Positions 1-8,711 of a DNA stretch of 8,711 bases are shown here, in pieces. The position numbers and the translations under genes were made by a program. The notes under the pieces are model-generated. The model was not told the origin of the DNA and made no database searches. It saw only the letters and a list, made by a program, of their open reading frames with translations. The first letter of the stretch is position 1. Each line of letters starts with the position of its first letter. Source of the DNA: a virus (lineage: Duplodnaviria > Heunggongvirae > Uroviricota > Caudoviricetes); IMG/VR virus record IMGVR_UViG_2695420643_000013; one strand, given 5' to 3'.

Positions 1-440
1 CGCCACCAGTCATCCTCACGCTCAAAATCCGGCATATCAATTCCCGCCAGATGGTAGGCATCCCGGAACAGCGTGTAACAGTCCGTCACCCCGTGCTCAA
101 AGAGCCGTCCTGTCAGATGTGGCACACAGCGGAATTTATGAATGTCCCCCCGGCAGACCAGCCACCAGGACAGTGCACTTTTTATCTGCAGCCGCCGGTC
201 GGCCTCGCTCAGCCAGGGCAGACCACCGGGATGACTGTGGACCAGTGCCACAATCTCCCCCTGCATCTCTGCCCGCAGCCAGTCTTCCGGTGCAATACGA
301 AAATACGCCTCCGGCTCTGCAGAGATATTCACACAAGGGATATACCGCTCCCCCTCCGGCGTTCTCACCACGAAGCCACACGACTCCGCAGGCACACACC
401 GCCGGGCATGCGCCAGAATCGCTGATTCAGTCTGTGTCAT
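1..440 (-). CDS. K: Tail assembly protein K, lambda gpK-like (N-terminal JAMM/MPN domain plus start of NlpC/P60 domain); partial, 3' end lies beyond window start
   Basis: Manual minus-strand translation from ATG at 440..438 gives the same first 99 residues as the 1766 copy (MTQTESAILAHARRC...HSHPGGLPWLSEAD...WWLVCRGD) and continues IHKFRCVPHLTGRLFEHGVTDCYTLFRDAYHLAGIDMPDFEREDDWW with no stop to position 1. HSHPx7SxxD is a JAMM motif; DCYTL matches the NlpC/P60 catalytic Cys region as I recall it from lambda K. Lies immediately downstream of L, as in lambda. Confidence 0.85.
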   Translation of the reverse strand, partial: MTQTESAILAHARRCVPAESCGFVVRTPEGERYIPCVNISAEPEAYFRIAPEDWLRAEMQGEIVALVHSHPGGLPWLSEADRRLQIKSALSWWLVCRGDIHKFRCVPHLTGRLFEHGVTDCYTLFRDAYHLAGIDMPDFEREDDWW

Positions 441-1149
441 AAACCGGGATTTACTGCGAAAGTTTATTAATGGAAAGGAAACCGCCAAAATTAGCCACCA
501 TGCCGCGCATCTCACACCCGCGCATGCACTTGCTGCATCTGTCCTTACGGATATCGGTGGTGGGTTTATCGAACTCATCCGCCACAGCCCCGCCCGTGTA
601 ACCACACTCATCAGAGCGGTAGGTCCACATACAGGTGTTCGCCAGCATGATGCGACCGGGAAACAGCGCCCCGTCCGTCTCGGTCGGTGTGGCCAGCACA
701 AACGAGGCCGTCATGGCCGTCAGCGATGACATCTGCTCCACCACCCACCGGTCAGTCAGCTCCTGCTCCGGGTCGGCCTCCGGATTGCCTGCCACAAAGT
801 TCACCGCATCCAGAAAACGCGCATACACCCGGCGGCGGACCACCGTGGCACCCACCAGGCTCTGCAAATCCTCCGCCATCCCGGTGACAAGACCGAACAG
901 ATTGGACACCGTCAGCGACGGGCGGGCACTGCTGCCCTTTCCGTTCATCTCAAAGCCACTGCCCTCAATCGGGTACGCCTGATATTGCCGCCCCTGCCAG
1001 GTCACCGGCTCCCTTTTTTCATTCAGCTCATTGCAGAAAAAATACCGCTCACCGCCCTGCACCGTCAGGTCGATTTCCCAGAGCACCACCCGCGGTGACT
1101 GCTCTGACTTAACCGACTCGTTCAGGCTTTCTTCGTGAATGTCCTGCAT
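145..1149. repeat. Direct repeat, copy A of the duplicated K(5')-L segment (continues at lower identity through the M-like region to about 1470)
   Basis: 145..440 matches 1471..1766 at offset 1326 with 2 mismatches in 296 nt (by eye). 451..1149 matches 1772..2470 at offset 1321, with a 5-nt indel in the L-K spacer. The encoded L proteins differ at 14 of 232 residues. Confidence 0.9.
451..1149 (-). CDS. L: Minor tail protein L, lambda gpL-like (copy 2 of 2)
   Basis: 232-aa ORF, same length as lambda L and with the Cys-rich C-terminus (CSKCMRGCEMRG...NFGGFLSINKLSQ) I recall from lambda gpL. About 94% aa identical (14 differences) to the ORF at 1772..2470. Start overlaps the stop of the upstream ORF. 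Confidence 0.9.
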   Translation of the reverse strand: MQDIHEESLNESVKSEQSPRVVLWEIDLTVQGGERYFFCNELNEKREPVTWQGRQYQAYPIEGSGFEMNGKGSSARPSLTVSNLFGLVTGMAEDLQSLVGATVVRRRVYARFLDAVNFVAGNPEADPEQELTDRWVVEQMSSLTAMTASFVLATPTETDGALFPGRIMLANTCMWTYRSDECGYTGGAVADEFDKPTTDIRKDRCSKCMRGCEMRGMVANFGGFLSINKLSQ

Positions 1150-1766
1150 CAGTTCACCACCTGCTTAAACTCCGCGCTGAACTCAACGCGCAACATCCCG
1201 ACCCGCGCAGACCACCCGGCACAGGTCACCTTTATCTGCCGGTATGCATAGGGTGGCTTCCACAAAAATGCCTTCCAGCCCCCGTGCTCTGCCAGAAACG
1301 CTTCCAGATGCCGGGCCTCCTCCCGGGTCACGGAAAGCGTCACCCGGTATGTTTTCAGGTCAGCATTCAGCCCTGCCGCCATACGCTGTGAGTACCCGTC
1401 ACCAAAACGCACTTCACGCACCGATGGCTGCGAGTTCACCTCCATATCCGGCTTCACTTTCCAGCGAAAATCCCCCCGGCAGACCAGCCACCAGGACAGT
1501 GCACTTTTTATCTGCAGCCGCCGGTCGGCCTCGCTCAGCCAGGGCAGACCACCGGGATGACTGTGGACCAGTGCCACAATCTCCCCCTGCATCTCTGCCC
1601 GCAGCCAGTCTTCCGGTGCAATACGAAAATACGCCTCCGGCTCTGCAGAGATATTCACACAAGGGATATACCGCTCCCCCTCCGGCGTTCTCACCACGAA
1701 GCCGCACGACTCCGCAGGCACACACCGCCGGGCATGCGCCAGAATCGCTGATTCTGTCTGTGTCAT
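1149..1766 (-). CDS. Chimeric ORF: K N-terminal JAMM/MPN domain (residues 1-99) fused in frame to minor tail protein M (from about residue 4 to the end)
   Basis: 205-aa ORF. Residues 1-99 are encoded by sequence near-identical to 145..440 (K 5' end). From residue 100 (FRWKVKPDMEVNSQPSVREVRFGDGYSQR...RVEFSAEFKQVVN) it aligns along its full length to the M ORF at 2470..2811 and, by recollection, even more closely to lambda M. Junction maps to about 1470/1471. Whether it is expressed or functional is unknown. Confidence 0.7.
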   Translation of the reverse strand: MTQTESAILAHARRCVPAESCGFVVRTPEGERYIPCVNISAEPEAYFRIAPEDWLRAEMQGEIVALVHSHPGGLPWLSEADRRLQIKSALSWWLVCRGDFRWKVKPDMEVNSQPSVREVRFGDGYSQRMAAGLNADLKTYRVTLSVTREEARHLEAFLAEHGGWKAFLWKPPYAYRQIKVTCAGWSARVGMLRVEFSAEFKQVVN

Positions 1767-2470
1767 TGGATTTACTGCGAAAGTTTGTTAATGGAAAGGA
1801 AACCGCCAAAATTAGCCACCATGCCGCGCATCTCACACCCGCGCATGCACTTGCTGCATCTGTCCTTACGGATATCCGTAGTGGGGTTGTCGAACTCATC
1901 CGCCACCGCAGGACCGTTATACCCGCATTCATCTCCCCGGTAATCCCACATACAGGTGTTCGCCAGCATGATGCGACCGGGAAACAGCGCTCCGTCCGTC
2001 TCGGTCGGTGTTGCCAGCACAAACGAGGCTGTCATGGCCGTCAGCTCTGACATCTGCTCCACCACCCAGCGGTCGCTCAGCTCCTGCTCCGGGTCCGCTT
2101 CCGGATTGCCCGCCACAAAATTCACCGCATCCAGAAAACGGGCATACACCCGGCGGCGGACCACCGTGGCCCCCACCAGGCTCTGCAGGTCCTCCGCCAT
2201 CCCGGTGACCAGACCAAACAGATTCGACACCGTCAGCGACGGGCGGGCACTGCTGCCCTTCCCGTTCATCTCAAAGCCACTGCCGTCAATCGGGTATGCC
2301 TGGTACTTCCGCCCCTGCCAGGTCACCGGCTCCCCTTTTTCATTCAGCTCATTACAGAAAAAATACCGCTCACCACCCTGGGCCTTCAGGTCAATTTCCC
2401 AGAGCACCACCCGCGGTGACTGCTCTGATTTAACCGACTCGTTCAGGCTTTCCCCGTGAATATGCTGCAT
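1471..2470. repeat. Direct repeat, copy B of the duplicated K(5')-L segment (continues at lower identity through M to 2811)
   Basis: See copy A. Homology of the K part stops abruptly at 1470/1471, where the sequence switches to the M-like reading frame. Confidence 0.9.
1772..2470 (-). CDS. L: Minor tail protein L, lambda gpL-like (copy 1 of 2)
   Basis: 232-aa ORF in the canonical position directly after M (stop/start overlap at 2470). Sequence family as for 451..1149. Confidence 0.9.
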   Translation of the reverse strand: MQHIHGESLNESVKSEQSPRVVLWEIDLKAQGGERYFFCNELNEKGEPVTWQGRKYQAYPIDGSGFEMNGKGSSARPSLTVSNLFGLVTGMAEDLQSLVGATVVRRRVYARFLDAVNFVAGNPEADPEQELSDRWVVEQMSELTAMTASFVLATPTETDGALFPGRIMLANTCMWDYRGDECGYNGPAVADEFDNPTTDIRKDRCSKCMRGCEMRGMVANFGGFLSINKLSQ

Positions 2471-2811
2471 CAGTTCACCACCTGCTCAATCGTACAGCTG
2501 AAATCACTGTACCGGACGTTATCCGTGACGCTCCACTCCCGGCACACCACCCTCACCGTCCGGTTATGTTTCGGCGGTCGCCACAAAAAGGCACGGTAAC
2601 CACCATGCCAGGATAAAAATTCATCCAGCCAGCGCCGGGTTGACTCATCCGTCACCCGGAACACCGCCTGAAACGTCTTCAGTTGAGGATTCAGTCCTGT
2701 GGGGCGACGCTGTTCATAACCGTCACCAAACCGTACCCTCGCCACCGACGGTTTCTCACTCACCTGCATCCCTTCACGCGGGACCAGATGCAGCGTTTTT
2801 ATCTCAGCCAC
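2470..2811 (-). CDS. M: Minor tail protein M, gpM family (divergent from the M-like part of the chimera)
   Basis: 113-aa ORF between tape measure and L, the size and position expected for gpM. Shares the RFGDGY, HGG and AFLW-PP motifs and the C-terminal QVVN with the M-like half of ORF 1149..1766. Start at 2811 overlaps the H stop by 8 nt. Confidence 0.85.
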   Translation of the reverse strand: MAEIKTLHLVPREGMQVSEKPSVARVRFGDGYEQRRPTGLNPQLKTFQAVFRVTDESTRRWLDEFLSWHGGYRAFLWRPPKHNRTVRVVCREWSVTDNVRYSDFSCTIEQVVN

Positions 2812-5800
2812 TCAGCATTCCTCCGTCACGTCGCATGGACAACATCACCGCCTGCACCCGCTGGTCAATCAGCTGCACAAGACTGCCTGCCGCCTCCGGC
2901 CCTATCTGGCCATTAGTCCCGTCATTCTGAATGGCGATATGGTAGACCGGGGAATACACCAGGCCCGCACTACCGTTCATACTGCCCACCGCTCGCACAC
3001 CCAGCGAGCCATCCGCCGCCCGGGTCAGGGGCATAATGGCTTCAGGACCGGCCTCCCCCATCAGTCCCGCCCCTTTTGCAAAGGCAAAGTACGTGGGCGT
3101 ATCCACAATACTGTTGCTGTACGCACTCAGGTTTGCCGAGGTATACACGCCGCCTTTTGCATTGGCCACCGCCCCGCCCAGCCAGTCACCAATGCTGCCG
3201 AGAAATCCTCCCGCACCGGACATACCGTTTGCCGCCGTCTTAATTCCGTTGACAATCGCGGCATTCATAAGAACTTTTGATATTTCCTGCAGCACTGATG
3301 AGGCCCAGCTGCGCCATTCCACTTTATTTCCGTTCAGCATCTCCGTGATGTTATTCACCATCCCTGAGATACCCTCCGTCGCAAGCTGTGCTGCCTGTGA
3401 GGCGTAATCGGACGCATTATCCACCCAGTTACTGAATCCCTCCTGCAGCCCTTTCTGCCAGTCCGCACGCTGCACATCCGATTCGGCATAAAAGGCTGCC
3501 TGGTCCTTAAGGCGTTCGCTCAGATACTGCGCGTTCTGTGCCCGTGCCTGTCTGTAAAAATCCTCACTGATATCCCCGGTCTGATACTGAGACTGAAGGT
3601 CCGCATCCTTCTGGCGGAAGCTGTCGCGGATCTGCTGCAACTCCCGCATGCGTTCCCTGGCTCGTTCTCCCTGCCCGTATCCCAGCAGTTCGGCTTCATT
3701 TGATGCACGCGCAGCCACATTATCATTCTTCAGGGTCTCTTCCCGGGATCGCAACTGTTCCCGGATTTTTTGCTGGTCAATCAGGGCCGCGTTACGCAGC
3801 AGTTCCTGCTTCTGCATCTCCGTCAGGGTTTTCAGTTCGCCCTGCGCAGTCTGGTACTTCAGCTTCGCCAGCTCTGTATTCTGACCCGCCAGTGCCAGTT
3901 GCTCTTTCTGCTGCTTCAGTAGCCGGGAAAAACTGTCTTCCGCTTTTTCCGTCTCTGATTTTCCACCCCGGGATTTAGGTTTGTTCGCCTCGTTATTACG
4001 CCAGGCTTCCAGGGCATTACTGATATAACGCTGTCTCGCCTCCTGATACGAATCCCCCACAAAACCAAGGTCATCCGCCGCATACCCCAGCCGGGCACGC
4101 TCTTTTTCCTCCCCCTTCAGTCGGGACAGGGCCAGCTCACGCTCTGTTTTTGTCAGGGCACTCTGCTGTTTATCATCCAGGGTGGCCTGTGGCAGCCGTA
4201 ACGGTACATTCACCAGCCCCTGACGCTGCTGAAGCAGTTCATTCCCCAGCCCCAGCAGACGGTTGAATTCCGTATGCTGACCGTTCATAACCAGCATGGA
4301 CTGGTACACCTTATTCTGCTCTGCCGCCTGCTGACGAATTAACGCCACACGACGGTCTTCCAGCCCGGCAAGCACATCCTGAATGGACTGCGCTTTTTCC
4401 TGCATCTGTGCCAGACGGGACTGCTCAACGGCAAGCTGCTCTGTTGCCTGAGCAAGCCCTTCCGTTACGGTCTTCACCGAGGTCAGATGGTTTATCATGA
4501 ATCCGTCACCGGTCGTCCAGCCCGGGTTCGCCAGAACATACTGATATCCTGCGATTTTTTCCTGCAGGGATTTCACCCGACTGGCCTGTTCATCAATCAG
4601 CCGGTTCTGCTCTGTCAGCGCCGCCCGTGTTCGTCCTTCATTATCTGAGGCTTCAGGCAAAGACATTGACGGCGTTTTATGCGCGATTTCATCTATCGTC
4701 AGTGCATACTGGCGCGCAGACTCCCTGGCCTGCTCCTGATTCTGGTACAGCGTGTACCATGCTGCAGCCCCCAGCATCACCAGTCCGGGTACGCCACCAA
4801 CCAGCCCCAGCGCACCGCTCATCAGACGTGAGCCCACCGCCGTTGTACTGTTCAGCGCATTCTGGGCGGCGCTTCTGGCAGCAATATTTCTGTTCAGGCG
4901 TTCCTGTGTGGCCGCCAGACGGGCCTCTGCAGCAATCTGCATCTCCGTCCCGCGGGCTGCCGCCACGGCCTGCTGAGCACGGTACACGGCTGCCCTTGCC
5001 CGCGCTGTGGCAATCTGCGTTCCCCTGAACTGTGCTTCCGCCAGTGCAACTTCATTACGTGCAGCCGTCACAAGTCCTGCCGTGGCAGACATCGCTCCGG
5101 AGGCCATATTGCCAAAGTACCGGGCAACCCCGACGGCAACCAGCGCACCCACAGCTGTTGCCACATTATCAATCTGTCCGGCAACACCGTTCAGCACGCC
5201 GGAGAGCGTTTTTGTCACCCCGCTGGCCTCATTCACTCCGCCCACCCAGGCCATAAAGGCGTTTTCCACCTTCGTGATACTACCGGAAACCGTTTCTGGC
5301 ATGGCGGCATATTCATCACGCAATACCCCCAGCTGGCTGATTAACGCAGGAACGACTTTATCCGCCGTCAGTTGACCATCGTCCGCCATCGCCTTCAGAT
5401 CTTTACGGGCCACGCCCATGCCTGCAGCCAGTGCACGAATGATCCGGTCACCACTTTCATTGACCGAATTAAATTCCTCACCGCGCAACACACCCTGTGC
5501 CAGCGCCTGGCTGAACTGGGTGATCACCGAACCCGCCTCAGCCGTACTGGCACCGGAGATTTTCAGCCCCGTGGAAATGGCCTCCGTCACCTTCAGCACA
5601 TCATCAGCACTGTAACCATATTCACGCATCGAGGCAGCCGAACGGGCAAACAGGGCCGCATTATCCGAAAAAGCGGTACCTGTCCGCTGGCTGATATCCA
5701 TCAGCACTTTCTGTGATGACGAAAATTCATCAGATGACTGCGACGCCTGTTTCAGACGGGCATTCACGGAACTCCACTCATCAGCCAGTGAAATCAGGTG

Positions 5801-6046
5801 TCCGGTGGCAAAGGCACCGGCAAATGCGCCAGCCATTCCGACAGCAGAACCGCGAATTTCCGTCAACTGGCTGTTCAGTTCTGCCAGGGCACGTCGCTGC
5901 TCCCGGGCTGCCGCAGCGGCCTGACGCCCGCCATTCTGCAGGGTCCGGTAATATTCACTGCCCATACGGGAAGCACGCTGGAGCTCCGACTGGAATGACT
6001 GTGAATTTGCCGAAATTTTGATAATCAGTTCACGTAACGTCGCCAT
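2804..6046 (-). CDS. H: Tail tape measure protein, lambda gpH family
   Basis: 1080-aa ORF, Ala/Gln/Arg-rich with long predicted helical stretches and Gly/Ala-rich hydrophobic segments. C-terminus (NDGTNGQIGP...RRDGGMLSG) matches the lambda H C-terminus as I recall it. Sits between the G/T chaperone pair and M. RBS-like GGAGAAAGGTGA lies directly upstream of the ATG at 6046. Confidence 0.95.
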   Translation of the reverse strand: MATLRELIIKISANSQSFQSELQRASRMGSEYYRTLQNGGRQAAAAAREQRRALAELNSQLTEIRGSAVGMAGAFAGAFATGHLISLADEWSSVNARLKQASQSSDEFSSSQKVLMDISQRTGTAFSDNAALFARSAASMREYGYSADDVLKVTEAISTGLKISGASTAEAGSVITQFSQALAQGVLRGEEFNSVNESGDRIIRALAAGMGVARKDLKAMADDGQLTADKVVPALISQLGVLRDEYAAMPETVSGSITKVENAFMAWVGGVNEASGVTKTLSGVLNGVAGQIDNVATAVGALVAVGVARYFGNMASGAMSATAGLVTAARNEVALAEAQFRGTQIATARARAAVYRAQQAVAAARGTEMQIAAEARLAATQERLNRNIAARSAAQNALNSTTAVGSRLMSGALGLVGGVPGLVMLGAAAWYTLYQNQEQARESARQYALTIDEIAHKTPSMSLPEASDNEGRTRAALTEQNRLIDEQASRVKSLQEKIAGYQYVLANPGWTTGDGFMINHLTSVKTVTEGLAQATEQLAVEQSRLAQMQEKAQSIQDVLAGLEDRRVALIRQQAAEQNKVYQSMLVMNGQHTEFNRLLGLGNELLQQRQGLVNVPLRLPQATLDDKQQSALTKTERELALSRLKGEEKERARLGYAADDLGFVGDSYQEARQRYISNALEAWRNNEANKPKSRGGKSETEKAEDSFSRLLKQQKEQLALAGQNTELAKLKYQTAQGELKTLTEMQKQELLRNAALIDQQKIREQLRSREETLKNDNVAARASNEAELLGYGQGERARERMRELQQIRDSFRQKDADLQSQYQTGDISEDFYRQARAQNAQYLSERLKDQAAFYAESDVQRADWQKGLQEGFSNWVDNASDYASQAAQLATEGISGMVNNITEMLNGNKVEWRSWASSVLQEISKVLMNAAIVNGIKTAANGMSGAGGFLGSIGDWLGGAVANAKGGVYTSANLSAYSNSIVDTPTYFAFAKGAGLMGEAGPEAIMPLTRAADGSLGVRAVGSMNGSAGLVYSPVYHIAIQNDGTNGQIGPEAAGSLVQLIDQRVQAVMLSMRRDGGMLSG

Positions 6047-6062
6047 TCACCTTTCTCCGGGC

Positions 6063-6087
6063 AAAAAAACCTGCCACAGCAGGTTTT
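6063..6087 (-). terminator. Perfect palindromic stem-loop with flanking U-tract between T stop and H start (terminator-like or mRNA stability/processing hairpin)
   Basis: Plus strand aaaaaaa-cctgc-caca-gcagg-tttt. On the minus-strand transcript: AAAACCUGC UGUG GCAGGUUUU followed by UUU, i.e. a 9-bp stem (5 GC pairs plus 4 AU pairs), 4-nt loop and U-run. Located in the 50-nt gap between T stop (6097) and the H ribosome binding site. Confidence 0.4.
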
Positions 6088-6096
6088 CATCATTAT

Positions 6097-6411
6097 TTAT
6101 GACATTGCTGCAAAGCTCAGCGCGTCTTCCAGCGCCGCAAACGGATCTGACTCCACTTTATCCTCATCCTCGCCCCAGCAGAGCATGGCGTCCTCCAGTG
6201 AAACATTCATCCCCTGCGCCCCGAAAACCGCTTTCACGATCTGCGCATTACGGATATCCCCGCGCTCATCGCCCAGCGGGGACACCCTGTCGAACTCCAT
6301 CCACATCATCGCCTCGCTCGCACTCAGACTGTGGCCCAGTTCGGATAAGGTGCGCCCCAGACGGAGCGCAAGTCGCATCAGAAAGAGAATTTCCGGGCGG
6401 GCTACTTTTTT
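6097..6411 (-). CDS. T-frame extension of the tail assembly chaperone (G-T fusion product, made by -1 programmed ribosomal frameshift from G)
   Basis: The -1 frame relative to G is open from the slippery heptamer at 6411..6405 through the 93-aa ORF 6097..6378. Read by hand: after the slip the sequence runs AAA AAA GTA GCC CGC CCG GAA ATT CTC TTT CTG ATG CGA CTT, joining the MRLALRLGRT frame. The G then G-T arrangement just upstream of the tape measure gene is conserved in long-tailed phages. Confidence 0.8.
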   Translation of the reverse strand, partial: KKVARPEILFLMRLALRLGRTLSELGHSLSASEAMMWMEFDRVSPLGDERGDIRNAQIVKAVFGAQGMNVSLEDAMLCWGEDEDKVESDPFAALEDALSFAAMS

Positions 6412-6774
6412 CTGGCCGACTCTGCATCAGCGATCAGTTCCAGTGCCTGACGCAGCAACCGGGCATGTACCGGACCATAGACGGCCAGCACCTGCTCACG
6501 GTCGTCCGGAGTGAACACCCGCTGCAGATCCGTATCAAACAGGACATCGCAGAACAGCGTCACATCCGCTTCCAGGTTACGGCGGGTTTTCGCCACCACC
6601 GACAGGGTATCGTCATCCTCTCCATCACCATTGAGCACTTCCTGCCACAGATACCAGGCCTCTGCCGAAGGCTCCCGCAGCACCACGCTGACATTACCCC
6701 ATTCCGGCACCTTCACCGTTTTATGACGAAACCCTGACAGTCTGGCCAGCGCCAGCGTTTTCAGATCCTTTTTC
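6402..6774 (-). CDS. Tail assembly chaperone (gpG analogue)
   Basis: ORF between the major tail and tape measure genes. I place the start at the internal ATG 6774..6772 (MKKDLKTLALARLSG..., 124 aa) rather than 6824, because it follows the V stop (6791) and is preceded by an AAGGGGA Shine-Dalgarno about 8 nt upstream. Acidic protein ending ...ESARKK with the slippery site in its last codons. Confidence 0.8.
6405..6411 (-). promoter_or_regulatory. -1 programmed ribosomal frameshift slippery heptamer A_AAA_AAG (G to G-T)
   Basis: Minus-strand sequence AGA AAA AAG TAG: the heptamer A AAA AAG is in the X_XXY_YYZ register of the G frame, immediately before the G stop codon, and the -1 frame is open into the T ORF. 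Same heptamer as the well-known dnaX frameshift site. Confidence 0.75.
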
Positions 6775-6790
6775 ATGATGACCCATCCCC

Positions 6791-7507
6791 TTATCCGGCG
6801 GCTGCGCTCACTGTCACGGTGCATTCAACAGACGTCACACTCTGTGCTTTCTCTGCCGAATCGGTCACCACGCAGGTATATTTCCCCGCATCAGCGGACT
6901 GCGCACCTGGCTTACTGAAGGTGTCTGTCGTCTGCCCGTCAACCGGCTGACCATCCTTCTTCCAGGCGTATTTATACGGCGGCGTTCCCCCGTTGGCACT
7001 GACTGACATTGTCAGCAGCGCACCTGTATTCACGGTAAGTGTTTTATCCAGATTTTTCACAAACGCCAGCGGTACCACAAAGGACACCGGTTTGCCTTTC
7101 ATACGCAGTGAAAACGTTGCTGCCACCACGCCGTTGGTACCGGATGACCAGGTGTGCTGACGCACTTCCGCCAGGAACTTAAAGCCCTTACCGGACGGAA
7201 ACAGCACCTTAAACGCATACAACGCGTCATTGTCATAGGCATCACGCAGGGCGTTCTGGGCCTGATTCAGATAAAAATTACCCGACATGGAAATCTCAGA
7301 CGACGCCCCCAGACCGTTGATGTTCTCCTGCTCGGTGGAGCAGAGCGTGGTCACATCAATATCCTGTTTCTGACCGGCGGTGAACTGGACTTCCTTGATG
7401 GTGCAGTCCAGGCGCAGATATTCCGCCTTATCCATAGTTTCAGCAGTCGCCGGGGCAGATGAAATCATCACCTGCGTCAGCTGTGAGCGTTCATACAAAG
7501 CAGACAT
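6791..7507 (-). CDS. Major tail (tube) protein with C-terminal Ig-like domain
   Basis: 238-aa ORF directly upstream of the G/T chaperone pair, the conserved position of the major tail protein. Strong RBS (AGGAGG, 7 nt upstream of the ATG). The C-terminal 80 aa or so (GGTPPYKYAWKKDGQPV...AGKYTCVVTD...VECTVTV) have the pattern of an Ig-like domain, as on lambda gpV and other phage tail tube proteins. Confidence 0.8.
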   Translation of the reverse strand: MSALYERSQLTQVMISSAPATAETMDKAEYLRLDCTIKEVQFTAGQKQDIDVTTLCSTEQENINGLGASSEISMSGNFYLNQAQNALRDAYDNDALYAFKVLFPSGKGFKFLAEVRQHTWSSGTNGVVAATFSLRMKGKPVSFVVPLAFVKNLDKTLTVNTGALLTMSVSANGGTPPYKYAWKKDGQPVDGQTTDTFSKPGAQSADAGKYTCVVTDSAEKAQSVTSVECTVTVSAAAG

Positions 7508-7521
7508 TCTGCCTCCTGATA

Positions 7522-7546
7522 ATAAAAAACCCGCACGCGGCGGGGT
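7522..7546 (-). terminator. Intrinsic-terminator-like hairpin between the tail terminator gene and the major tail gene
   Basis: Minus-strand transcript ACCCCGCCGCGUGCGGGUUUUUUAUU: 5-bp all-GC stem (CCCGC/GCGGG), 5-nt loop, then six U. Lies in the 66-nt intergenic gap after the TGA of ORF 7574..7918 and before the AGGAGG RBS of the major tail gene. Confidence 0.5.
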
Positions 7547-7573
7547 ATGGGTTTTGTAGAAAAAAAGAAAAAG

Positions 7574-7918
7574 TCACACCGTGACCTGAAACTCCAGGGT
7601 TGCACGGTAACAGCGGTTTTCCGGAATATAGTCCTGCATTTCACTGACGGATCCCGGGGCCAGCAGCATTATGGCTTCACGGGCGTCCTGACGTATCTGA
7701 CGCGCCTGCGTCACAGTCCCGGCATAAACGTCTATCTGCACCGACACTGAGGACTCCGCCTGCCCGCCCATCACGTCCGCAGACACCGATGAAATCAGGC
7801 TGAAAACCACCCACGGAAGCGCCACCGACGGCCTGCCATCCAGCAGGGGGACCACATACGGGTACACCTGCCCGCCGGCAAGATGCGCCAGATGAGGATA
7901 CAAATCCGCCTCCGTCAT
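7574..7918 (-). CDS. Tail terminator-like protein (gpU functional analogue), assignment by position and size
   Basis: 114-aa ORF immediately upstream of the major tail protein gene. Start overlaps the upstream stop (ATGA). Small tail-terminator proteins occupy this slot in lambda/HK97/SPP1-type gene orders. I do not recognise specific motifs. Confidence 0.55.
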   Translation of the reverse strand: MTEADLYPHLAHLAGGQVYPYVVPLLDGRPSVALPWVVFSLISSVSADVMGGQAESSVSVQIDVYAGTVTQARQIRQDAREAIMLLAPGSVSEMQDYIPENRCYRATLEFQVTV

Positions 7919-8361
7919 CGTCTCAGTACCTCATCAATGGCCCGGTTCATCCGTGCAATCGCCACTTGCGCTGCCTGTTCACTGCGCACATCAAACGCCG
8001 GACGCACAAACGGGTGCGGTGGCATATTCACGGTCCCCATTTCCACAAACCGCCAGTAGAAAGCATTGCGCGGGTTATCCGCCTTCATGGTGTTATCGCT
8101 GTTACCGGTGTCCGGATTAACACCCCGGATATGCACACCGGATTCCATCCCGCCATCGCGGGAGCGCCGGGAAAGGACCACCACATTGCGGCGCAGTTTT
8201 CCCCTGCGTACCGGTGCCCGTGACACCACTTCTTCTTTCAGCACATTCGCACCCGCACGGGTTGCCTCACGCAGCACCCGGTTATTTTCTGCACCACTCA
8301 GAAGCTGCAAATCGCGGCTGATGTCCTCCAGCCCCGAAAAATCCAGCAGGGTTTCGATCAT
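7915..8361 (-). CDS. HK97 gp10-like neck/tail-completion protein (tentative)
   Basis: 148-aa ORF in the neck gene cluster. The C-terminal region (NMPPHPFVRPAFD) resembles what I recall of the HK97-gp10 family. Translationally coupled on both sides by ATGA overlaps. Confidence 0.55.
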   Translation of the reverse strand: MIETLLDFSGLEDISRDLQLLSGAENNRVLREATRAGANVLKEEVVSRAPVRRGKLRRNVVVLSRRSRDGGMESGVHIRGVNPDTGNSDNTMKADNPRNAFYWRFVEMGTVNMPPHPFVRPAFDVRSEQAAQVAIARMNRAIDEVLRR

Positions 8362-8708
8362 TTTTCACCTCCCAGCCGACAGAGAATTTCCAGACGTCCG
8401 CCGGTCGCATCCGGCACGGGCAGCCCGACAACGTTCAGGATCCGGTCACGCCAGGGACCACTCAGCACATGAAGTCGTGACGCTGCCGTGATTTCCCGAC
8501 CGGACTGACCGCGCACCCAGATGCGGATTTCCGCCTGCGCCATTTCCGCACCGGACTGCATCCGCTCCCGGCTGCTCCTGCCACGGATATCCGCATGAAT
8601 TTTCCCGCATGACACCCATTCTTCCGTCATTTCTCCGGCAGCATTACGGGTTAACACCGGGTTCAGAACACTTATCATCTGTGTCAGACGACCTGCAGAT
8701 ATTGCCAT
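8358..8708 (-). CDS. Head-tail adaptor / head closure protein (SPP1 gp16-like family, tentative)
   Basis: 116-aa ORF, first gene of the neck cluster in the window. Size, position and general pattern are consistent with phage head-tail joining proteins. Start is 3 nt from the window edge, so the true start could lie upstream. Confidence 0.5.
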   Translation of the reverse strand: MAISAGRLTQMISVLNPVLTRNAAGEMTEEWVSCGKIHADIRGRSSRERMQSGAEMAQAEIRIWVRGQSGREITAASRLHVLSGPWRDRILNVVGLPVPDATGGRLEILCRLGGEK

Positions 8709-8711
8709 TCC

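Follow-up and report, generated by a model that had tools for sequence, protein, structure and literature searches.

Organization of the Tail Gene Region

The window, i.e., the complete stretch of 8,711 nucleotides analyzed here (IMG/VR record IMGVR_UViG_2695420643_000013, Caudoviricetes), contains phage tail genes that are all located on the minus strand in the order H, M_A, L_A, a chimeric open reading frame (ORF) composed of K residues 1 to 99 and M_B residues 4 to 109, L_B, and K_B. The genes are assigned to M-L-K tail cassettes on the basis of Pfam matches that all lie far above the curated cut-offs and of the H-M-L-K order on one strand. The two cassettes represented in the window are referred to as A and B, and their genes, segments, and boundaries are found at the following positions.

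2804..6046, minus strand: tape measure protein H of cassette A, 1080 aa, HK97 type (Pfam TMP_3, Phage_HK97_TLTM, and Tape_meas_lam_C)
2470..2811, minus strand: M_A, minor tail (distal tail) protein, 113 aa, a type found with the HK97-type tape measure (Pfam Phage_min_tail)
1772..2470, minus strand: L_A, minor tail protein L, 232 aa, copy A allele (Pfam Phage_tail_L)
1149..1766, minus strand: in-frame chimeric ORF, 205 aa, K residues 1 to 99 with the JAB/MPN domain plus residues 4 to 109 of a lambda-type M (Pfam)
1471..1766, minus strand: K 5′ fragment, copy A, K nt 1 to 296 (alignment to natural K alleles)
1469..1471, minus strand: nonhomologous K-to-M junction (comparison with the parental alleles)
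1149..1469, minus strand: 3′ part of M_B, codons 4 to 109 plus the stop codon of a lambda-type 109-aa M (nucleotide match to natural B-type M)
451..1149, minus strand: L_B, minor tail protein L, 232 aa, copy B allele (Pfam Phage_tail_L)
1..440, minus strand: K_B, the first 440 nt of a full K gene that runs past the left edge of the window (Pfam Prok-JAB)
1149..1168, minus strand: mosaic boundary of copy B, the last ~19 nt of M (Q-V-V-N-stop); copy A counterpart at 2470-2489
556..624, minus strand: divergent patch within L, L nt 526 to 594; copy A counterpart at 1877-1945
145..555, minus strand: near-identical block comprising the L 3′ end, the L-K spacer, and K nt 1 to 296; counterpart at 1471-1876

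The product of the chimeric ORF combines two Pfam domains, Prok-JAB at residues 3 to 102 and Phage_min_tail at residues 100 to 204. The NlpC/P60 half of K_B lies beyond the window. The two copies form direct repeats in a head-to-tail arrangement with a spacing of 1321 to 1326 nt, and they are connected at positions 1469 to 1471, where K nt 296 is followed by M nt 10. Every ORF in the duplicated unit is intact, and the start of L_B overlaps the stop codon of the chimera, which keeps the stop/start coupling of the two genes.

Lineages of the Two Cassettes

Both cassette lineages are common in prophages carried by Escherichia coli strains that produce Shiga toxin (STEC). In STEC O45:H2 and O111, single-copy prophages that combine the HK97-type tape measure with the 113-aa M protein match positions 1471 to 8711 of the window with 99.9% identity; compared to the UTAK-2 prophage, the window shows 8 mismatches in 7241 nt. 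M_A shows 99.7% nucleotide identity with M of the UTAK-2 prophage and 95 to 97% with other A-type loci. The collection indexes the exact L_A protein in 4129 blocks; 10 of the 10 contexts listed for it are single-copy cassettes with a 1080-aa H and a 113-aa M in the order H-M-L-K. The K 5′ fragment of copy A is 100% identical to K of UTAK-2 and to two further natural single-copy alleles (L007 and L008). HK97 itself was rejected as a source of M_A, which has only 34% amino acid identity with the M protein of HK97; the resemblance of cassette A to HK97 is thus confined to the tape measure family and the head-tail genes.

The second lineage is distinct in M and H. M_B matches M of two natural B-type cassettes (L002 and L010) with 100% nucleotide identity over 321 nt. 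It shares 79.2% of its amino acids with lambda M, compared to 45.0% for M_A, in line with the original prediction that the M half of the chimera is closer to lambda M than the M gene at 2470-2811. The M proteins in phage records fall into discrete types, one close to M_B and lambda and the other with 90 to 99% identity to M_A and ~45% to lambda. Sixty phage records hold an M at ≥95% amino acid identity to M_B, and 91 records hold one at 90 to 99% to M_A, followed by a gap to below 80%. M_A and M_B therefore are members of different M families, each tied to its own type of tape measure. The H protein of cassette A and the lambda-type H proteins of B cassettes show 26 to 29% amino acid identity, in the C-terminal part only.

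The exact L_B protein is indexed in 1305 blocks, and its natural neighbors are either a 109-aa M with a lambda-type H or a 113-aa M with an HK97-type H. L_B is 99.4 to 99.9% identical to natural alleles at the nucleotide level, and K_B is 99.3% identical to one natural K allele (L009). K_B is not copied from an A-type K: past the junction point, 7 of 144 nt differ between K_B and K of the A parent, compared to only 2 of 296 nt before it. Positions 1 to 1469 of the window match other prophages carrying the lambda-type tape measure with 98.7% identity at best. The A side (99.9%), M_B (100%), and L_B (99.9%) match different natural lineages, so that the two copies do not group with the same donor. 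A common donor lineage for both copies of every gene had been named in advance as evidence against a mosaic origin. No genome with both exact parents was identified among complete genomes; since the exact B parent is absent from these (98.7% for the best match), the two parents cannot be assigned to a common host cell.

Identity between the Copies

The original prediction described a steep identity gradient, with K 5′ segments ~99% identical at the nucleotide level, L proteins ~94% identical, L differences clustered around 556 to 630 and 1876 to 1950, and M sequences sharing about half of their residues. These four estimates agree well with the measured values. The K 5′ segments (1471-1766 and 145-440) show 2 differences in 296 nt (294/296, 99.3%), both synonymous, and the 99 encoded residues are identical. 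The L genes (1772-2470 and 451-1149) differ at 60 of 699 nt (91.4% identity), corresponding to 218 identical residues out of 232 (94.0%) in the proteins. M_A and M_B share 48% of their amino acids over 98 aligned residues and about 55% of their nucleotides in a codon-based alignment. Uniform divergence across the unit, which would have spoken against the prediction, is not seen: K 5′, L, and M are strongly heterogeneous (99.3%, 91.4%, and ~55%; chi-square of 281, P of about 8e-62).

The differences within L are unevenly distributed as well, with 22 of the 60 located in L nt 526 to 594 (window 556-624 and 1877-1945). In a permutation test with a 75-nt window, the observed count was reached in 0 of 5000 permutations. 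This patch has an identity of 68.1%, compared to 93% for L nt 1 to 525 and 99% for L nt 595 to 699. Both patch alleles are found in natural single-copy L genes, and L of UTAK-2 contains an intermediate version. In the stretch from L nt 595 through K nt 296, identity of the copies amounts to about 99%, not counting an indel of 5 nt in the L-K spacer; the near-identical block as a whole contains three substitutions in addition to this indel. The spacer has a length of 10 nt in copy B and 5 nt in copy A, and both alleles, ATCCCGGTTT and ATCCA, are present in natural cassettes.

The predicted unevenness of identity is thus real, but its form is stepwise rather than a smooth gradient. Sliding identity between the copies jumps from 0.44 to 0.90 at the M/L boundary. 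The change is abrupt and located at the gene border, with homology starting 19 nt upstream of the L start (window 2489 and 1168). A blastn comparison of the A cassette with a natural B cassette gives a single 718-nt alignment comprising L and 19 nt upstream, with no alignment in M, H, or farther upstream.

Comparison of natural A and B cassettes that are not linked to each other explains this profile. In 72 such pairs, identities are 55 to 58% for M, 93 to 100% for L nt 1 to 525, 68 to 100% for the patch, 97 to 100% for the L 3′ end, and up to 99.7% for K 5′. One pair (L021 and L002) shows 56.4, 92.8, 68.1, 99.0, and 99.3% for these five segments, and the window's own pair shows 55.8, 93.0, 68.1, 99.0, and 99.3%. 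Because identity in K 5′ rises to 99.3 to 99.7% in unlinked natural pairs, the copies in the window are no more alike than those of unrelated prophages, and their K 5′ segments are not closer to each other than to alleles from outside. The gene conversion at the K-proximal end that had been offered as one explanation of the gradient is therefore not needed, nor is divergence after a duplication; the comparison with natural pairs led to the rejection of both processes. The different donor lineages and the profile of the unlinked pairs support the other explanation offered, recombination between two different lambdoid tail cassettes.

Tandem duplications known from the classical genetics of phage lambda provide a precedent for duplications on the kilobase scale in lambda-like genomes. 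A tandem duplication of M-L-K5′ in one phage, followed by divergence and by gene conversion homogenizing the K-proximal end, would match the layout and the regular repeat spacing, as well as the ~99% identity of K 5′ and the L 3′ end between the copies. It is nevertheless scarcely credible as the origin of the region. A divergence of M to 48% amino acid identity is impossible in situ with flanks that are 99.9 to 100% identical to natural alleles, and the M, L, and spacer alleles of each copy exist in unlinked single-copy prophages. Furthermore, the K 5′ copies are no closer than those of unlinked natural pairs, and K_B beyond the junction differs from the A-type K. The uniformly low divergence and the common lineage expected of a single origin are not observed.

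The K-M Junction and the Fusion ORF

The sequence across the K-to-M junction is GGGGGGATTTTCGCTGG. The parental K alleles read GGGGGGA-A/C-ATTCAT at this point and the parental M_B reads ATGAAAACC-TTTCGCTGG, compared to GGGGGGA-T-TTTCGCTGG in the chimera. The T at position 1470, which makes up the last missing base of codon 99 (GAT), is found in neither of the parental alleles. Comparison of the chimera with the parental K and M_B revealed no microhomology and no other register at the junction. An alternative join was considered 12 nt downstream, where AAATTCCGCTG of K resembles CCTTTCGCTG of M, and was rejected, as a simple join at that site would not reproduce the sequence of the chimera. 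Apart from the junction T, the 617 nt around the junction contain no private change.

The junction was searched for in several collections. Among 5426 complete genomes of E. coli, 50,697 phage records, and 72,556 plasmids, no place matched ≥80% of a 261-nt junction query, and every match ended at the junction. Exact junction patterns of 40, 28, and 22 nt are absent from IMG/VR, GTDB representative genomes, and JGI metagenomes. An exact look-up of the 205-aa fusion protein returned nothing on record, and in a collection of 5.8 billion protein clusters, none of the best 120 of 244 matches combines Prok-JAB and Phage_min_tail in one protein. In the search for homologues of the fusion, each match covers one half only. 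The 204-aa matches that were inspected are not K::M fusions but frameshifted K proteins. The K-M fusion is apparently unique among the collections searched, and the reality of the junction rests on this one sequence. Other odd fusions, for example, K::L and T::M, exist as singletons.

The junction stems either from an illegitimate recombination that took place very recently or, with lower probability, from a chimeric assembly. In the latter case, the contig would wrongly connect reads of two different lambdoid prophages from a single genome, or reads derived from a chimera formed during sequencing or in the library; the duplication and the K::M fusion would then be unreal, and the uneven identity would still reflect two real cassettes. 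The absence of the junction from the collections searched and of the fusion architecture from the best 120 of 244 protein matches is consistent with such an artifact. So are the 100% identity of the flanks on both sides of the junction to natural alleles, the shortness of the window, which ends within repeated prophage genes, and the known difficulty that STEC genomes, with up to 15 to 18 places matching these genes, pose to assemblers. Against this stands the nature of the join itself. Misjoins in an assembly graph arise in shared sequence, but K and M_B share none at the point where they meet, and one junction base fits neither parent. A random chimera would seldom link two tail cassettes with matching orientation, with a register offset of 1.3 kb, and without loss of the reading frame, and all ORFs of the unit are intact. 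An assembly or sequencing artifact is regarded as rather unlikely.

The in-frame fusion raises a further question, that of a selected, functional arrangement in which both the fusion and the additional L gene would be retained for a contribution to tail-tip assembly. The fusion might tether the JAB domain of K to the distal tail ring, or the two L proteins might form mixed trimers. The chimera is in frame, its JAMM motif region (HSHP...SEAD, located in residues 1 to 99) is preserved in full, and it lacks only 3 residues of M; the intact ORFs and the overlapping stop/start coupling of L_B with the chimera would allow such a role. In contrast, the arrangement recurs nowhere in the collections searched, and the region carries no changes after the event that could reveal selection. 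The lambda-type M half is confronted with a tube and a tape measure of the other type in the window, and one in three joins would be in frame by chance. Such a functional role is thus very improbable. The same low probability applies to the reading as an expressed, selected innovation of the tail tip, which could deliver the JAB domain of K to the growing tip or mix two tail lineages. In the more probable case of a recombination scar, the fusion protein would be a by-product and probably nonfunctional, since its M half is without the cognate lambda-type tube protein.

Origin of the Arrangement

The region is probably a recombination scar in which two lineages of the lambda-like tail cassette are joined end to end. 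Cassette A would have contributed the sequence from the head-closure gene through H, M_A, and L_A to the first 296 nt of K, and cassette B, from a lineage with the lambda-type tail shaft, would have contributed M from codon 4 onward, L_B, and K_B. The nonhomologous join, in which codon 99 of K is followed in frame by codon 4 of M, would then mimic a tandem duplication of M-L-K5′. The differences between the copies would predate the join and represent the inherited divergence of the two lineages. In this scenario of joined cassettes, M, H, and the tube genes would belong to a deeply diverged tail-shaft module, and L, K, and the downstream genes would belong to a tail-tip module that is freely swapped among lambdoid prophages by homologous recombination. 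The separate histories of the shaft and tip modules would account for the step in identity from ~55% to >90% at the M/L border and for the 99% identity across the L 3′ end and K 5′.

Two routes to the arrangement are conceivable. The first is a single step, a template switch or illegitimate crossover between A and B cassettes paired via their L-K homology. The second would begin with a tandem duplication in a B-type phage, which would then have been connected to an A-type phage by a homologous crossover within the 99% identical L3′-K5′ block. Both routes would yield the identical product and are indistinguishable. The sequence comparisons show to which lineage each part belongs, the step in identity at the gene border, the matching profile of unlinked natural pairs, and the missing homology at the junction, whereas the event itself is one that we infer. 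It appears to be recent, because no private change except the junction T is found in 617 nt and because direct repeats of ~400 nt with 99% identity should delete readily. As part of the best explanation, the region may represent a natural intermediate caught soon after illegitimate recombination, before homologous deletion turns it into an ordinary mosaic.

Relation to Known Systems

The H-M-L-K order, the Pfam families, and the M/L stop/start overlap are shared with phage lambda. The lambda products are the distal tail protein gpM, the hub protein gpL with an Fe-S cluster, and gpK, an assembly protein with JAB and NlpC/P60 domains. Both L copies of the window have 76% amino acid identity with lambda L, and M_B has 79% with lambda M. 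Unlike lambda, the window contains two L genes, two M sequences that belong to different families, and a fusion of a K fragment with M, and its tape measure and the adjoining M are of the HK97-related type. In lambda, gpM forms the distal tail protein ring, with one face on the gpV tube and the other on gpL/gpJ, and gpK is absent from the virion (PMC10721106). The module boundary between M and L fits the role of gpM as an adaptor ring between tube and tip, and the M/L border is confirmed as a sharp boundary separating the tail-shaft genes (tube, chaperones, tape measure, and M) from the tip genes (L and K onward).

The mosaicism of lambdoid phages, with patches of >90% identity in a background of ~50%, has been attributed to illegitimate and homeologous recombination (PMC2327257). 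The window shares several features of this modular exchange (PMC2327257, PMC9836094), namely, abrupt transitions between ~50% and >90%, one of them at the M/L border, a short divergent patch inside L, and blocks matching different natural phages. Whereas ordinary mosaics have one copy of each gene and keep synteny, the modules in the window overlap by 1.3 kb; the partial duplication and the fusion ORF follow from a joint with one end within K and the other within M. The uneven identity of the copies is explained by this well-known mosaicism, the only unusual part being the in-frame K-M join, and the main value of the analysis is one of housekeeping. A real junction would represent one of the rare natural cases in which a nonhomologous joint falls within genes and the partial duplication has been preserved. 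The illegitimate recombination model of phage mosaicism predicts such unselected intermediates, which are seldom seen; a single instance is anecdotal. For the annotation and assembly of STEC prophages, the region calls for caution.

The closest relatives show the ordinary state of the locus. The prophages of UTAK-2 (NZ_CP157162.1) and of O45:H2 strain 2011C-4251 (NZ_CP027388.1) match the window in their genes, starting at head closure and extending up to K nt 296. Their K gene leads straight into I and J, without a second M-L unit or a K::M junction. Enterohemorrhagic E. coli genomes with multiple lambdoid prophages, such as the prophage pool of O157 Sakai, hold several near-identical tail cassettes per cell that are able to recombine (PMC2669165). 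These prophage exchanges have been described as homologous (PMC2669165), in contrast to the junction in the window, which joins K and M at a site without homology.

Gene layout and identity between the two units

Repeat finding and sliding-window alignment show two head-to-tail units with a spacing of 1321-1326 nt. Cassette A (window 1471 upward) contains an HK97-type tape measure gene, M_A, L_A and a K 5' fragment, and cassette B (window 1-1469) contains a lambda-type M_B, L_B and K_B. Every gene is carried by the minus strand:

8708-8358, minus, head closure protein
8361-7915, minus, HK97-gp10-like protein
7918-7574, minus, tail completion gp17
7507-6791, minus, major tail protein, 238 aa, Ig-like C-terminus
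~6776-6402, minus, tail assembly chaperone
~6378-6097, minus, T
6046-2804, minus, tape measure H, 1080 aa
2811-2470, minus, M_A, 113 aa
2470-1772, minus, L_A
1766-1149, minus, chimeric 205-aa ORF, Prok-JAB and Phage_min_tail (Pfam)
1149-451, minus, L_B
440 to window edge, minus, K_B start

The identity figures of the original prediction hold: the K 5' copies are identical at 294/296 nt, with both differences synonymous, L_A and L_B show 91.4% nucleotide and 94.0% amino acid identity, and M_A and M_B agree at 48% of residues and, in the codon alignment, at 55% of nucleotides. Divergence is thus heterogeneous across K 5', L and M (chi-square 281, p ~8e-62). The clustering of L differences claimed around 556-630 versus 1876-1950 is borne out by a divergent patch at L nt 526-594 (window 556-624 and 1877-1945), which holds 22 of the 60 differences and is matched by 0 of 5000 permutations. 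The M half of the chimera is, as proposed, closer to lambda M than M_A is (79% versus 45% identity). A steep gradient was also proposed; the uneven identity stands, in the form of a step rather than a slope. When cassette A is compared by blastn with a B-type cassette from nature, one 718-nt alignment results; it comprises L and the 19 nt at the end of M and does not extend further upstream. The tape measures of the two cassette types have 26-29% of residues in common, in their C-terminal parts only.

Natural alleles and donor lineages

M, L and K 5' were taken from natural single-copy cassettes, 18 of A-type and 4 of B-type, and compared in all pairs, 72 of them A x B. In these 72 pairs the figures are as follows. 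Identity is 55-58% in M, 93-100% in L nt 1-525, 68-100% in the L patch and 97-100% in L nt 595-699, and reaches 99.7% in K 5'. The unlinked prophage loci L021 and L002 give 56.4, 92.8, 68.1, 99.0 and 99.3% for these five segments, compared to 55.8, 93.0, 68.1, 99.0 and 99.3% for the two copies in the window, so that the profile predates the adjacency of the units. These pairs contradict a tandem duplication followed by divergence or gene conversion, and neither process is needed for the identity profile. Homogenization of the K-proximal end had been offered as one explanation, yet the K 5' copies are no more alike than those of unrelated prophages. The alternative offered with it, mosaic origin, is supported, with the observation itself confirmed, as the copies match different lineages.

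Single-copy prophages of STEC O45:H2, O111 and related strains share 99.9% identity with window 1471-8711, and the UTAK-2 prophage (L014) shows 8 mismatches in 7241 nt, 6 of these in L. UTAK-2 and the prophage loci L007 and L008 carry a K 5' with 100% identity to that of copy A. For window 1-1469, the best whole-stretch match (98.7%) is to prophages that combine a lambda-type tape measure with a 109-aa M. M_B is 100% identical to L002 and L010 across 321 nt, L_B shows 99.4-99.9% identity to many natural loci, and the 5-nt and 10-nt alleles of the L-K spacer are both natural; taken piece by piece, copy B consists of natural alleles. K_B differs from the A-type K at 7/144 nt beyond the junction point and 2/296 nt before it, so K_B was not copied from the K of the A parent. 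The collection has 4129 blocks with the exact L_A protein, 10/10 listed contexts being single-copy A-type cassettes, and the exact L_B protein, in 1305 blocks, adjoins either M type. Phage records show two discrete M families separated by a gap; M_B and lambda M are close to the first, M_A to the second.

The L patch is a segregating natural polymorphism with an intermediate version in UTAK-2. Four of the eight UTAK-2 differences lie at its 3' edge (L nt 582-594, window 1877-1889), where the UTAK-2 bases are copy-B-like; the patch boundary thus differs from one natural allele to another, indicating that small recombination events have recurred within L.

An IS3-family element lies at the L 3' end, between L and K, in E. 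coli 2011C-4251 (L025, 3404-4617; equivalent to window ~1767-1800). This insertion is present in the closest cassette A relatives, four O45:H2-type genomes (H121-H124), and absent from the L-K interval of the window. It is also in this interval that the spacer varies naturally between 5 and 10 nt.

The step at the M/L border

In the lambda virion, which is without gpK, the distal tail protein gpM forms a hexameric ring, one face of which anchors the tip to the gpV tube while the other touches the gpL/gpJ ring (PMC10721106). In the contexts listed for the L_A and L_B proteins, the 113-aa M always accompanies a TMP_3/HK97-type tape measure, and a lambda-type one always accompanies the 109-aa M. 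It is reasonable to infer that M moves together with the genes for tube, chaperone and tape measure, and that lambdoid prophages exchange a tip module made up of L, K and the genes downstream. The textbook picture of lambdoid mosaicism is one of patches of >90% identity in a ~50% background, resulting from illegitimate and homeologous recombination (PMC2327257; PMC9836094). The uneven identity between the copies is ordinary mosaicism of this kind.

The K::M junction

The sole unusual element is the singleton K::M junction at 1469-1471, a candidate on this one sequence. The chimera contains the K N-terminal domain (Prok-JAB, residues 3-102) and M (Phage_min_tail, residues 100-204), with K codons 1-99 continuing in frame into M codon 4 (...CRGD|FRWKVKP...). 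Parental K reads ...CTGCCGGGGGGA(A/C)ATTCAT, parental M_B reads ...GCGATGAAAACCTTTCGCTGG, and the window reads ...CTGCCGGGGGGATTTTCGCTGG; comparison of these alleles shows no microhomology. The T at 1470 differs from both parents among sampled alleles and completes codon 99, keeping the frame.

Among 5426 complete E. coli genomes, 50,697 phage records and 72,556 plasmids, no match to a 261-nt junction query runs past the query midpoint, and exact junction strings were not found in IMG/VR, GTDB representative genomes or JGI metagenomes. Exact look-up of the 205-aa protein returned no record, and the domain combination occurs in 0 of the best 120 of 244 matches in a collection of 5.8 billion protein clusters. 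This uniqueness is compatible with an assembly or read chimera, which is nevertheless unlikely: repeat mis-joins fall within shared sequence, of which this join has none, and its same-orientation, in-frame, locally displaced geometry is also expected from real slipped recombination.

Public E. coli and Shigella assemblies contain other singleton tail-gene fusions (P0041, P0075, P0076, P0115, P0109, P0024), including K::L (Prok-JAB with Phage_tail_L), T::M (Phage_tail_T with Phage_min_tail) and K::Lom. Aberrant joints thus have precedents in the tail cassette, none of them equal to the K::M joint.

The joint most likely goes back to a single non-homologous event that connected K nt 296 to M nt 10, with an offset of ~1.3 kb from the homologous register. 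This event may have taken place directly between A and B cassettes paired via L-K homology. Alternatively, it may have created a tandem duplication in a B-type phage, which then underwent homologous crossover with an A-type phage within the 99% L3'-K5' block. The observed product is the same by either route, and the data do not discriminate between them. An A-type duplication as the start of a two-step route is excluded: the second step would find no homology between M_A and M_B. Apart from the junction T, there are no private substitutions around the junction, and ~400-nt direct repeats at 99% identity should recombine readily, which suggests that the event was recent. A tidy A-shaft/B-tip hybrid would result from deletion between the K 5' copies or between the L copies. 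A selected functional K::M fusion has no support beyond the intact reading frames. Most likely, the fusion protein is a by-product, its lambda-type M half being accompanied in the window by a tube and tape measure of the other type.

Other features of the tail genes

The chaperone gene ends in ...AGA AAA AAG TAG (6402-6413, minus), with the heptamer A AAA AAG (6411-6405) immediately 5' of the stop codon, and its -1 frame stays open as far as the ORF of T, which has its ATG at 6378. The arrangement resembles the conserved G/GT programmed -1 frameshift of long-tailed phages. Tape measure H (2804-6046) is a composite of TMP_3 (residues 83-273), HK97 tape measure (395-686) and a lambda-type C-terminal domain (862-933), with similarity to lambda-type H confined to the C-terminal third (~26-29% aa). 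Precomputed annotations of identical genes give weak Ig-like domain matches at the C terminus of the major tail protein (6791-7507), the type of decoration commonly found on siphophage tube proteins.
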